In this document: positions 2,679 through 9,193 of the stretch, one piece after another
Layout: each line of letters begins with the position of its first letter
Numbering within the stretch: position 1 is the first letter of the stretch
Source of the DNA: an uncultured Wenzhouxiangella sp.
Lineage (GTDB): Bacteria > Pseudomonadota > Gammaproteobacteria > Xanthomonadales > Wenzhouxiangellaceae
Length of the DNA stretch: 64,000 bases
Assembly: GCA_913057255.1 (NCBI GenBank)
Contig: CAJXNU010000001.1
Coordinates: 5,974 to 69,973, forward strand
Direction of reading: 5' to 3'
Notes under the pieces: generated by a model
The model's input: only the letters and a program-made list of their open reading frames with translations
Told to the model about the DNA's origin: nothing
The model's database searches: none
Translations under genes and position numbers: made by a program

Positions 2679-3535
2679 TCGTTAACTCGGCTCAGTCGAT
2701 GAAGCAATACATGGTCAATGCCTTTGCCGATCGGTGGACGGGTGGCAACCCGGCGGCTGTGTGTGTATTGAACCAATGGGTGCGAAGTGACGTCATGCAG
2801 GCCATAGCCGCTCAGAACAACCTCTCTGAGACAGCTTTTTTTCTCAGGCCTCAACCCTCTGACCGGCTCGATACGCCGATTCGCCTTCGCTGGTTTACGC
2901 CATCCCATGAGGTCGATTTGTGTGGGCATGCCACCTTGGCCAGCGCCCATGTTTTATTTGAGCATCTCCATTGGCCCGAAGACCAAACCATCGTTTTTGA
3001 GACTCGAAGTGGCCTGTTGTCTGCCACGAAAGACCAGCCATGGATCGCGATCGATTTGCCAGCCAGTGACCCTCAGCGGGTGGTTTCACCAACGACGCTT
3101 CATGATGTGAGTGAGGCTTTGGGGGCAGAGGCCATTGAACTATTCGAGGCAGAGGATTATTTGGCGGTTGTCTCGAGCATTGATCATTTGCAATCACTTG
3201 CGCCCAATTTTTCTCAGCTGGCTTTGTTGGACCGGCGTGGAGTGATTGCGACCGCGCGAACCGATGACCAGGCGAGCGATGATTTTTATAGCCGTTTTTT
3301 TGTGCCAAAGCTCGGTGTGAACGAAGACCCAGTGACCGGTTCCGCGCACTGTCAATTGATTCCTTATTGGACGCGAGTGTTGGGCAAAGACACGCTCAGT
3401 GCTTGGCAGTGCTCCAATCGCGGTGGGCGCGTGTTGGGGGAGTGGATGGGGTCTCACGTTCGTCTTAAAGGACAAGCGATGACGTTTAGTGAAGGTAAGA
3501 TCGTGGCCGATCTGGCACTGGGCGGTCGAGAGTGA
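2675..3535 (+). CDS. PhzF family epimerase/isomerase
   Basis: NAF...GGNPAAV, NLSETAF, EVDLCGHATLA, EDPVTGSAH motifs. Confidence 0.9.
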   Translation: MIVNSAQSMKQYMVNAFADRWTGGNPAAVCVLNQWVRSDVMQAIAAQNNLSETAFFLRPQPSDRLDTPIRLRWFTPSHEVDLCGHATLASAHVLFEHLHWPEDQTIVFETRSGLLSATKDQPWIAIDLPASDPQRVVSPTTLHDVSEALGAEAIELFEAEDYLAVVSSIDHLQSLAPNFSQLALLDRRGVIATARTDDQASDDFYSRFFVPKLGVNEDPVTGSAHCQLIPYWTRVLGKDTLSAWQCSNRGGRVLGEWMGSHVRLKGQAMTFSEGKIVADLALGGRE

Positions 3536-7903: not shown

Positions 7904-8611
7904 ATGTTTAAAACAAAGACCGGTTCGACGCTTCTGGCTTCATCGCTGCTGTTATCTGGCTTAGCGGTGGCAGACACGCAAGACTTTCAAGGCTTTTATG
8001 CGCAACTTGGTGCTGGCTATGAGTCCATCAAGCCAGTGCACGCAGAAAGCACGCTGACCATCAACGGCGCGGATATTCCGGTATCCACCACCTCAAAGAG
8101 CGCCGATGGTGCCATCAGCGTCATTTCTGCGGGTTGGTTTCAGGCCCTGAATAACCGCTATCTGTTGGGGGTTGGTATTGATTTTGCGCCTTTCCATGGC
8201 CCAAGTGGCACCATGGCTGTTTCTACCCAAGGCGCGCTGCCCAATCAAAATAATCTGGTCAACGATTACGGGTATAAGAAAAAGAGCAGCTACAACATCT
8301 ATGTTGCTCCGGCCATTGTGGTGGGTGATGCTGGCTTGGCATACGCCAAACTGGGATACGCCAGCACGAAAGTCACCAAATATGATTCCGTCGATTACAA
8401 CTTTGGTGATCTGTCAGTGGGTTTGGGTTATCGCCAAAACTTCGACGGTGGCTGGTATGGGTTTGCAGAAATCAACTATGCAGACCATGGCAATCAAACA
8501 GAAACAGAAACCTCGTTGAACCCAGCGGCTCAGGGACGAACCTTGACGGCCACTGCAACCAATGCGTTAGAGACATTTAACTTGGTCGCTGGCATTGGCG
8601 TGAAGTTCTAA
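7904..8611 (+). CDS. Outer-membrane beta-barrel protein (small, OmpA-TM/porin-like)
   Basis: Sec signal peptide, FQGFYAQLGAGYE first strand, alternating aromatic/Gly strands, C-terminal Phe (GIGVKF). Confidence 0.8.
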   Translation: MFKTKTGSTLLASSLLLSGLAVADTQDFQGFYAQLGAGYESIKPVHAESTLTINGADIPVSTTSKSADGAISVISAGWFQALNNRYLLGVGIDFAPFHGPSGTMAVSTQGALPNQNNLVNDYGYKKKSSYNIYVAPAIVVGDAGLAYAKLGYASTKVTKYDSVDYNFGDLSVGLGYRQNFDGGWYGFAEINYADHGNQTETETSLNPAAQGRTLTATATNALETFNLVAGIGVKF

Positions 8612-8737: not shown

Positions 8738-8824
8738 TGGTGCCGAGAAGAGGACTCGAACCTCCACGTCCATACGGACACTAGCACCTGAAGCTAGCGC
8801 GTCTACCAATTCCGCCACCTCGGC
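8738..8824 (-). tRNA. tRNA-Leu (anticodon CAG)
   Basis: Reverse complement GCCGAGGTGGCGGAATTGGTAGACGCGCTAGCTTCAGGTGCTAGTGTCCGTATGGACGTGGAGGTTCGAGTCCTCTTCTCGGCACCA; anticodon arm CTAGC-ttCAGgt-GCTAG. Confidence 0.96.
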
Positions 8825-8836
8825 AGGTGGGCGCTT

Positions 8837-8865
8837 ATTATATCGCCCCCATTAGCCAATGTCAT
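8837..8865 (-). promoter_or_regulatory. sigma70 promoter of tRNA-Leu(CAG)
   Basis: ATGACA-17 bp-TATAAT on the minus strand, just upstream of the tRNA. Confidence 0.8.
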
Positions 8866-8891
8866 CAGGCAATGGTGTGCTTGGTCGGCAT

Positions 8892-8926
8892 AAAAAAAGC
8901 CCGAGAGGGCATTCTCTCGGGCTTTT
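8892..8926 (-). terminator. Rho-independent terminator ending the putative sRNA
   Basis: Minus strand GCCCGAGAG-aatgcc-CTCTCGGGC followed by 7 T. Confidence 0.85.
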
Positions 8927-9000
8927 GGAAGAGGTGCGGCCGAGGCAAGGGGGGAGCCTCGGCCGCGATCCGGGCAAGGAGGGGGAGCCTTACGCCGGAA
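8892..9000 (-). ncRNA. Putative trans-acting sRNA with two C-rich (anti-SD) hairpin loops
   Basis: Own promoter and terminator, no ATG-initiated ORF on that strand; 11-bp perfect stem GCGGCCGAGGC/GCCTCGGCCGC with loop UCCCCCCUU and a second stem with loop UCCCCCUCCUU. Confidence 0.7.
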
Positions 9001-9005
9001 ACCCT

Positions 9006-9033
9006 ATTGTAAACGACTGACCGTTCAAGTCAA
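9006..9033 (-). promoter_or_regulatory. sigma70 promoter of the putative sRNA
   Basis: TTGACT-16 bp-TACAAT on the minus strand; the same TACAATAGGG string precedes trpS (56955-56964). Confidence 0.7.
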
Positions 9034-9193
9034 CAAAAGTCAACTAATTTTTATCAATCTAATTTGAAGCGGTCGGCCAGCGTCATCAGCGGGCGTCCAT
9101 TGACCCCGTGAACGGCCCAAAATTTGCGCAGAAAAGGCCGCAGGGCGCTATACTTTGAGCAATCATTCAATTTAAGTCAAAACGGGTCTCAAT

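Follow-up and report, generated by a model that had tools for sequence, protein, structure and literature searches.

In the window (the whole stretch of 64,000 nt analysed here), an acyl-CoA dehydrogenase gene on one side and the gene for tRNA-Leu(CAG) on the other flank a minus-strand locus that, judged by comparative sequence analysis, is a genuine, conserved and previously uncatalogued structured small RNA gene. The reading that we favour, and regard as fairly probable, is that it encodes a stand-alone sRNA of ~105 nt from an uncatalogued family, whose C-runs would repress mRNAs with G-rich ribosome-binding sites in trans.

Architecture of the locus

Read along the minus strand, the locus comprises a promoter, hairpin 1, hairpin 2, a linker, a terminator with U7, a second promoter and tRNA-Leu(CAG), in that order (Table 1), and transcription of the sRNA is predicted to start near position 9000. 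A preliminary description of this DNA had named the sRNA promoter, the perfect stem of hairpin 2, the terminator and a separate promoter for the tRNA. All four are found in the minus-strand sequence, the first three at the places it gave, and the promoter scan agrees; A:U pairs lengthen the 9-bp G+C core of the terminator stem to 13 bp. Hairpin 1 had likewise been placed correctly and with the right sequence, but it had been drawn as GGC[UCCCCCUCCUU]GCC, whereas the fold and covariation give an outer UCCGG/CCGGA and an inner GUAAGG/CCUUGC stem, a pairing backed by the energy minimum and the pair probabilities as well. The linker begins with a conserved ACCU (CACCT is invariant or nearly so in the congener alignment), and the terminator loop, GAAUGC, lacks the C-motif of the other two loops.

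Table 1 Features of the sRNA–tRNA locus in the window (coordinates are window positions).
Feature	Position	Strand	Details
sRNA promoter	9006..9033	-	-35 TTGACT 9033-9028, 16-nt spacer, -10 TACAAT 9011-9006; promoter scan 10/12 matches
Hairpin 1	8969..8999	-	stems UCCGG/CCGGA and GUAAGG/CCUUGC; 8-nt loop CUCCCCCU 8987-8980
Hairpin 2	8936..8966	-	perfect 11-bp stem 8966-8956/8946-8936; 9-nt loop UCCCCCCUU 8955-8947
Pyrimidine-rich single-stranded linker ACCUCUUCC	8927..8935	-	9 nt; unpaired probability ~1
sRNA intrinsic terminator	8892..8926	-	13-bp stem (hairpin 8926-8895), 6-nt loop, U7 8898-8892
tRNA promoter	8837..8865	-	ATGACA-17-TATAAT; promoter scan 11/12 matches
tRNA-Leu(CAG)	8738..8824	-	ARAGORN and Rfam; sole CAG isoacceptor gene in the assembly

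Across 19 homologous loci, the boxes of the sRNA promoter, TTGAC and TAnAAT, show little or no variation, and they also stand upstream of all 58 loci examined. The -35 box has an additional TTGACT 5 nt upstream of it (AGTTGACTTTTGTTGACTT; 9039-9044, minus strand), a duplication common to two close relatives, G008 and G022. The tRNA promoter is conserved as TGACA...TATAAT in the sRNA–tRNA spacers of the loci that we call split-type below. Its -10 box is followed in the window by a G+C-rich stretch (GCGCC), and split-type tRNA promoters are generally G+C-rich after TATAAT (GCGCGGC, AAGCGCC; window 8827-8836), resembling stable-RNA promoters under stringent control; at this position the sRNA promoters are A+T-rich. 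The sRNA and tRNA genes may differ in their response to growth rate.

The preliminary description had also held that the unit contains no ORF. Short ORFs do overlap it (for example one of 41 aa, 8852-8977, minus strand), but the region is non-coding as claimed: its substitutions are distributed as in RNA stems and not as in codons, and we rejected a coding reading. Elsewhere in the neighbourhood, an ORF of 235 aa (7904-8611, plus strand) lies between two tRNA-Leu genes. It has no Pfam match; the N-terminus resembles a signal peptide and the C-terminus reads ...GVKF, and the product is possibly a small outer-membrane beta-barrel protein.

Conserved structure and strand

The 111-nt RNA folds at -65 kcal/mol, against an average of -34.8 for shuffled sequences (z = -8.8), and none of 200 shuffles folded as well. 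RNAalifold, run on a MAFFT alignment, returned three hairpins in which 10 of the 24 pairs had changed on both sides. When 62 sequences were aligned to a covariance model—a procedure that favours structure, although the MAFFT-only result has the same direction—98% of cells were standard pairs and 19/24 pairs showed compensatory changes. None of 500 shuffles matched any of the pairing measures observed in this alignment, and pairing fell to 35-57% in a control in which partner columns were slid by 1-3 positions. Changes on both sides affect 4/4 outer and 3/4 inner pairs of hairpin 1; in hairpin 2, every cell is paired across 60 distinct sequences and seven of eleven pairs carry compensatory changes; and a hairpin equivalent to the terminator, with compensatory changes of its own and followed by a U-run, is found at 31 split-type loci, mostly labelled Wenzhouxiangella. 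Both loops, meanwhile, are almost invariant. The fold, the covariation and the strand evidence that follows bear out the structured, non-coding, minus-strand sRNA of the preliminary description.

The strand can be read from the RNA itself. In 52/60 sequences, a U.G pair closes the loop of hairpin 2; read from the plus strand, this pair would become a C-A mismatch, which argues for the minus strand, as does the polarity shared by the promoter, the terminator with its U-run and the linkage to the tRNA. A plus-strand transcript acting as a CsrA/RsmA sponge through GGA loops, the alternative that the preliminary description had weighed against its own minus-strand reading, is hardly credible to us: the plus strand does fold well (z = -4.9) and its loops read AAGGGGGGA, but the mismatch and the conserved minus-strand polarity speak against it, and tblastn with E. 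coli CsrA found no homologue in the 95%-complete assembly.

We also considered a DNA operator and rejected it, since the stems, which would be the half-sites, vary while the spacer between them is conserved—the reverse of what a protein-binding site would show—and the U.G pair is present.

Distribution

A BLAST search of 40 relatives recovered the region from most genomes of the window's genus, and in homologues aligned from 18 congeners the -35 and -10 boxes and both loops are conserved and the stems vary. A covariance model (R1) built from 18 sequences matches 75 of 93 Wenzhouxiangellaceae genomes (47 of the 53 high-quality ones) in six of eight genera, nearly always with one match per genome, and has a single match in the window's own genome; a repeat element was rejected for this reason. 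An order-wide R1 search gave weaker matches (25-43 bits) in one further family, f7.

Carriers found by a pattern scan of species-representative genomes are labelled Wenzhouxiangella or Wenzhouxiangellaceae, with some labelled Lysobacterales, Lysobacteraceae or just Gammaproteobacteria. NCBI places the genus under Chromatiales; the order searched here is that of GTDB, Xanthomonadales, which includes both Wenzhouxiangellaceae and Xanthomonas. A strict pattern for the fused architecture described below matched none of 401 genomes spread over Gammaproteobacteria. As this pattern recovers all known fused loci and 5/7 f7 loci, while being one that would miss split or diverged forms, the fused arrangement appears confined to the host order.

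Fused and split states of the sRNA–tRNA unit

Wherever the contig was long enough (54/54 loci), tRNA-Leu follows directly downstream on the same strand. In 53 of these loci, ARAGORN calls the tRNA CAG; in the remaining one, L134 from the closest relative (G008), where it begins 117 nt after hairpin 2, the call is UAA, which reflects either a real anticodon difference or an artefact of assembly or calling.

All but one of these loci fall into two types. At the 22 fused ones, mostly labelled Wenzhouxiangellaceae or less precisely and belonging to other GTDB genera (g17-g19), the tRNA starts 8-17 nt after hairpin 2, with neither a terminator nor a second promoter in between. At the 31 split ones, the window among them, a gap of 84-160 nt holds a terminator hairpin and a TGACA-17-TATAAT promoter. 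Split loci are mostly labelled Wenzhouxiangella, with the terminator also present in one genome of a further GTDB genus (g21). Because terminator and second promoter separate the two genes, the split-type RNA can be regarded as an independent gene; the independent ~105-nt unit of the preliminary description therefore stands for the window's genome, where it has its own promoter and terminator, but holds almost only for Wenzhouxiangella. In f7, the fused form consists of a promoter (TTGACA-17-TAnAGT), two hairpins with UUCCCCCUU(U) loops and then the tRNA.

The window's assembly has one copy of the linked tRNA-Leu(CAG) gene. For the complete genomes checked, the gene most similar to the window tRNA (86-94% identical) adjoins the element, with one exception, and other tRNA-Leu genes match less well. 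Since the gene is single-copy and linked to the element, the sole gene for tRNA-Leu(CAG) in fused-type genomes would be transcribed through the double hairpin. Outgroup comparison, made here by inspection without a tree, suggests that the stand-alone gene is probably the derived condition, with fusion ancestral.

Two variants of the arrangement were seen. L111 (element at 3361-3452) has a 201-nt insert between the double hairpin and tRNA-Leu, where close relatives have a gap of 15-17 nt. In four fused-type loci (L080, 1735-2021, and L081-L083), a second tRNA, ~83% identical to the first and probably another Leu isoacceptor, follows tRNA-Leu(CAG) by ~120 nt on the same strand; the fused-type transcript may thus have the form leader–tRNA–tRNA.

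A conserved C-run in both loops

The motif conserved in both loops is U-C5-6-UU. Loop 1 reads UUCCCCCCUU in 40 and loop 2 UCCCCCCUU in 49 of the 62 sequences, the remainder being one-letter variants, and the window's loops carry C5 and C6 runs with an unpaired probability of ~1. C-rich loops are thus displayed as the preliminary description had it. Its key feature, an exact anti-Shine-Dalgarno string CCUCCUU in loop 1, fared less well. This string is confined to the small subgroup of the genus to which the window belongs, and it arises from a compensatory change of the inner stem of hairpin 1, GGGG:CCCC elsewhere and AAGG:CCUU in this subgroup. Moreover, by the energy minimum and the pair probabilities, its CCUU is base-paired with a probability of ~1, which leaves CUCCCCCU as the exposed loop. 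The match to AAGGAGG is therefore subgroup-specific and half buried, and what is conserved is the C-run.

The family-wide motif would pair best with sequences of the AAGGGGGGAA type. A C6 run pairs imperfectly with the canonical AGGAGG, so that 'anti-SD' is a loose term for most members.

Proposed function and candidate targets

In the mechanism that we propose, the exposed C-runs would base-pair with G-rich sequence within or adjacent to the ribosome-binding sites of several mRNAs and thereby prevent translation from starting, as for sX13 and ar14/NfeR1. In the fused state, a single promoter would drive the double hairpin together with the tRNA, and the RNase P cut at the tRNA 5′ end would free the double hairpin as an RNA of ~80 nt. 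In the split state, the insertion of a terminator and a tRNA-type promoter would have made the sRNA an independent gene. Production of the sRNA would be high and run parallel to tRNA-Leu(CAG) synthesis. Repression in trans is the likely function because drifting stems, invariant C-runs, two copies of the motif and a near-consensus promoter match what is seen in known repressors.

Plausible target sites exist in the window's own genome, in that GGGGG is enriched before starts: it occurs within 25 nt upstream of 6.8% of called starts, against 1.2% of genome background windows, a figure biased by crude start calls that were chosen partly by the strength of the SD. RNAduplex energies hardly separate start regions (mean -13.8) from coding windows (-12.6). 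A seed search in the same genome returned 37 genes, including two GT4 transferases, a response regulator, DUF520, greA and cutA, among which no common theme was obvious. The best two-site candidate, cutA, lacks both G-runs in its orthologues.

Two targets in the window had been put forward in the preliminary description, rpoH and cbpA, each through pairing with its SD. The genes are what they had been named, but in both cases the site is an ordinary strong SD. Compared over 30 relatives, the SD of rpoH proves to be a generic (A)GGAG, with no G-run, whose variation shows no correspondence with the sRNA loop; and AAGGAGG, the string on which the cbpA pairing relied, stands near the start codon of 12 genes in the genome. 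Neither pairing is supported. The assembly also encodes Hfq, on contig C3, with 84% identity over 68 residues.

Alternative explanations

Two other readings take the structure as given and differ from ours in what it does. The element might work in cis as a leader of tRNA-Leu(CAG), serving its transcription, folding, protection or processing by RNase P or RNase E, with no targets in trans and with the stand-alone copy as a relic. Its constant position immediately upstream of the tRNA on the same strand, the direct run-in at no fewer than 22 loci (at least 22), the recurrence of the arrangement in f7 and the lack of any CAG isoacceptor gene besides the linked one are all what a leader would lead one to expect. 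But the 31 split loci are uncoupled by a strong terminator and a tRNA promoter, and sRNA promoter, stems and loops are under constraint there all the same; invariant loops on drifting stems, besides, suggest sequence-specific recognition and not a structural spacer. We consider a purely cis-acting leader unlikely. About the same low probability attaches, in our estimate, to the RNA being a decoy or sponge, whose C-rich loops would soak up an RNA-binding protein with a preference for poly(C) loops, or else trap G-rich RNAs. Two near-identical loop motifs on one abundant-looking transcript would suit such a role, as would the presence of Hfq, the outcome of the target search, which found no conserved mRNA target, and the existence in E. 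coli of sponges derived from tRNA spacers, such as 3′ETS-leuZ. However, the analysis turned up neither a candidate binding protein nor a partner RNA, the negative tests of target conservation spanned only two candidate genes, and the closest functional analogues, sX13 and NfeR1, pair directly with their targets (PMC3771888, PMC10746234).

The remaining alternative concerns descent: the RNA could be a diverged true member of sX13 or of the alphaproteobacterial ar14/ar7 cuckoo RNAs, which we judge quite improbable. At gathering thresholds, an Rfam scan found no family reaching its cut-off at the window locus or in 19 related loci, in keeping with the preliminary description, which had recognised no known family. 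In E-value mode, the best Rfam match is ar14 (RF02344), with 43.1 bits against a cut-off of 58.8 (E = 1.1e-6 in a 551-nt search), followed by ar7 (RF02342), with 36.9 bits against 60; both align over their full models, hairpin for hairpin. The Betaproteobacteria toxic sRNA model (RF02278) gives 13.9 bits against a threshold of 50. Besides these full-model alignments, descent from a known family could draw on the position of the host family in the GTDB order of Xanthomonas, and on the cuckoo RNAs that adjoin tRNA-Leu in Rhizobiaceae (PMC4615179). Yet both scores remain below the gathering cut-offs, and low-complexity C-loops on G+C-rich stems easily give scores of this kind. Ar14 has its motif in all three loops; the window RNA has two C-loops, CUCCCCCU and UCCCCCCUU, and none in its terminator. 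The sX13 model (RF02232, cut-off 50 bits) has no match at the window locus at E<=1 and matches the window's own genome only on contigs C83 and C122; a run with stricter filters over 41 genomes missed even the polA match in that genome. Finally, because the same genome has a separate sX13-like RNA at polA, the window RNA appears to be a family distinct from sX13.

Implications

Small RNAs with C-rich, anti-SD-like loops are known from few lineages—Xanthomonas, rhizobia, Rhodobacter, Helicobacter and Staphylococcus—and whether they share ancestry or arose repeatedly is debated. The locus adds a well-supported C-rich-loop family in unstudied halophilic Gammaproteobacteria, and indicates that one genome can hold two such RNAs, here the window RNA and the sX13-like RNA at polA. 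Its two states, as a leader of tRNA-Leu and as a separate gene, offer a concrete example of an sRNA–tRNA unit splitting or fusing, and this duality suggests a possible tie between tRNA supply and translational control.

Taken further, the element might be the first tRNA 5′ leader to act as a conserved riboregulator in trans: RNase P would free a double C-loop RNA from the transcript of the sole tRNA-Leu(CAG), and in one genus the leader would have gained a terminator and the tRNA a promoter. We offer this as a tentative idea, and one more doubtful than the stand-alone repressor itself. If true, mRNAs with G-rich ribosome-binding sites would be repressed in proportion to the supply of the major leucine tRNA, and the locus would document how a stand-alone sRNA gene arises from a tRNA leader. 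Cultured strains exist, for example W. marina and W. sediminis XDB06 (locus L115), both of the split type; Wenzhouxiangella sp. XN79A (L119) is an isolate of the fused type.

Comparison with known RNA families

Full-text literature searches returned no paper linking Wenzhouxiangella with sRNAs and no description of an sRNA upstream of tRNA-Leu in Xanthomonadaceae. Among known RNAs, sX13 of Xanthomonas is a constitutive transcript of ~100-115 nt whose C-rich loops act on G-rich 5′ regions; it represses mRNAs bearing G-rich 5′ motifs independently of Hfq and always lies immediately downstream of polA (PMC3771888). The window RNA shares with it stable hairpins with CCCC/CCCCC loops—4C/5C motifs in single-stranded hairpin loops, one sX13 loop reading UCCCCCU—and a host family in the same order, given GTDB's placement of Wenzhouxiangellaceae in Xanthomonadales. 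It differs in that sX13 has three C-loops, is located at polA, where the window RNA is not, and has no described linkage to a tRNA.

In the window's own genome, the sX13 model gives a 27-bit match (cut-off 50) in the interval between the polA stop codon, which it directly follows, and a glmU-like gene (L157:1501-1622, that is, contig C83:4603-4724, plus strand, outside the window). This RNA has three hairpins with the loops UUCCUCCUCCCU, UUGUCCCCUUG and ACUCCCUC, followed by U7, and a fold z of -5.3. It has the appearance of a diverged RNA of the sX13 type from outside Xanthomonadaceae, the family to which sX13 was said to be exclusive. Further three-hairpin RNAs of ~110 nt were seen in f7 (L084, L085, L088-L091, L093 and L094, at ~2001-2112), with the loops UUCCCCCUUA, UGUUCCCCUUGCA and UUUACCCCUUA and no Rfam match at the gathering threshold. 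At the two loci checked, they lie between methyltransferase and AFG1-like ATPase genes, not at polA, and the middle one of their hairpins is similar to its counterpart in the polA-linked RNA.

The alphaproteobacterial cuckoo RNAs carry CCUCCUCCC in every loop (PMC4615179, PMC10746234); some of them adjoin a tRNA-Leu gene in Rhizobiaceae (PMC4615179), and ar14/NfeR1 acts through redundant anti-SD loops that occlude ribosome-binding sites (PMC10746234). Variable stems under loops with a C-rich motif, identical and ultraconserved in ar14/NfeR1 and ar7, are common to these RNAs and ours. Unlike them, the window RNA has U-C5-6-UU, and in two loops only, whereas CCUCCUCCC extends to their terminator loop; their hosts belong to a different class, and neither ar14 nor ar7 is known as a tRNA leader.

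For the link to tRNA, the nearest parallel is a different kind of molecule. 3′ETS-leuZ of E. coli, the 3′ trailer of a leucine tRNA operon, is a tRNA spacer-derived sponge of other sRNAs (reviewed in PMC7154689). Like it, the fused form would be a small RNA cut from a tRNA primary transcript, its synthesis coupled to tRNA transcription; unlike 3′ETS-leuZ, which has no C-rich loops, it is a 5′ leader, and in most genomes labelled Wenzhouxiangella the RNA has become a separate gene. The window RNA, as far as sequence comparison can tell, resembles sX13 and NfeR1 in design but forms a distinct family. That design, with C-rich, anti-SD-like loops, is of a known kind; the genomic logic, tRNA-Leu leader in some genomes and independent gene in others, is new.
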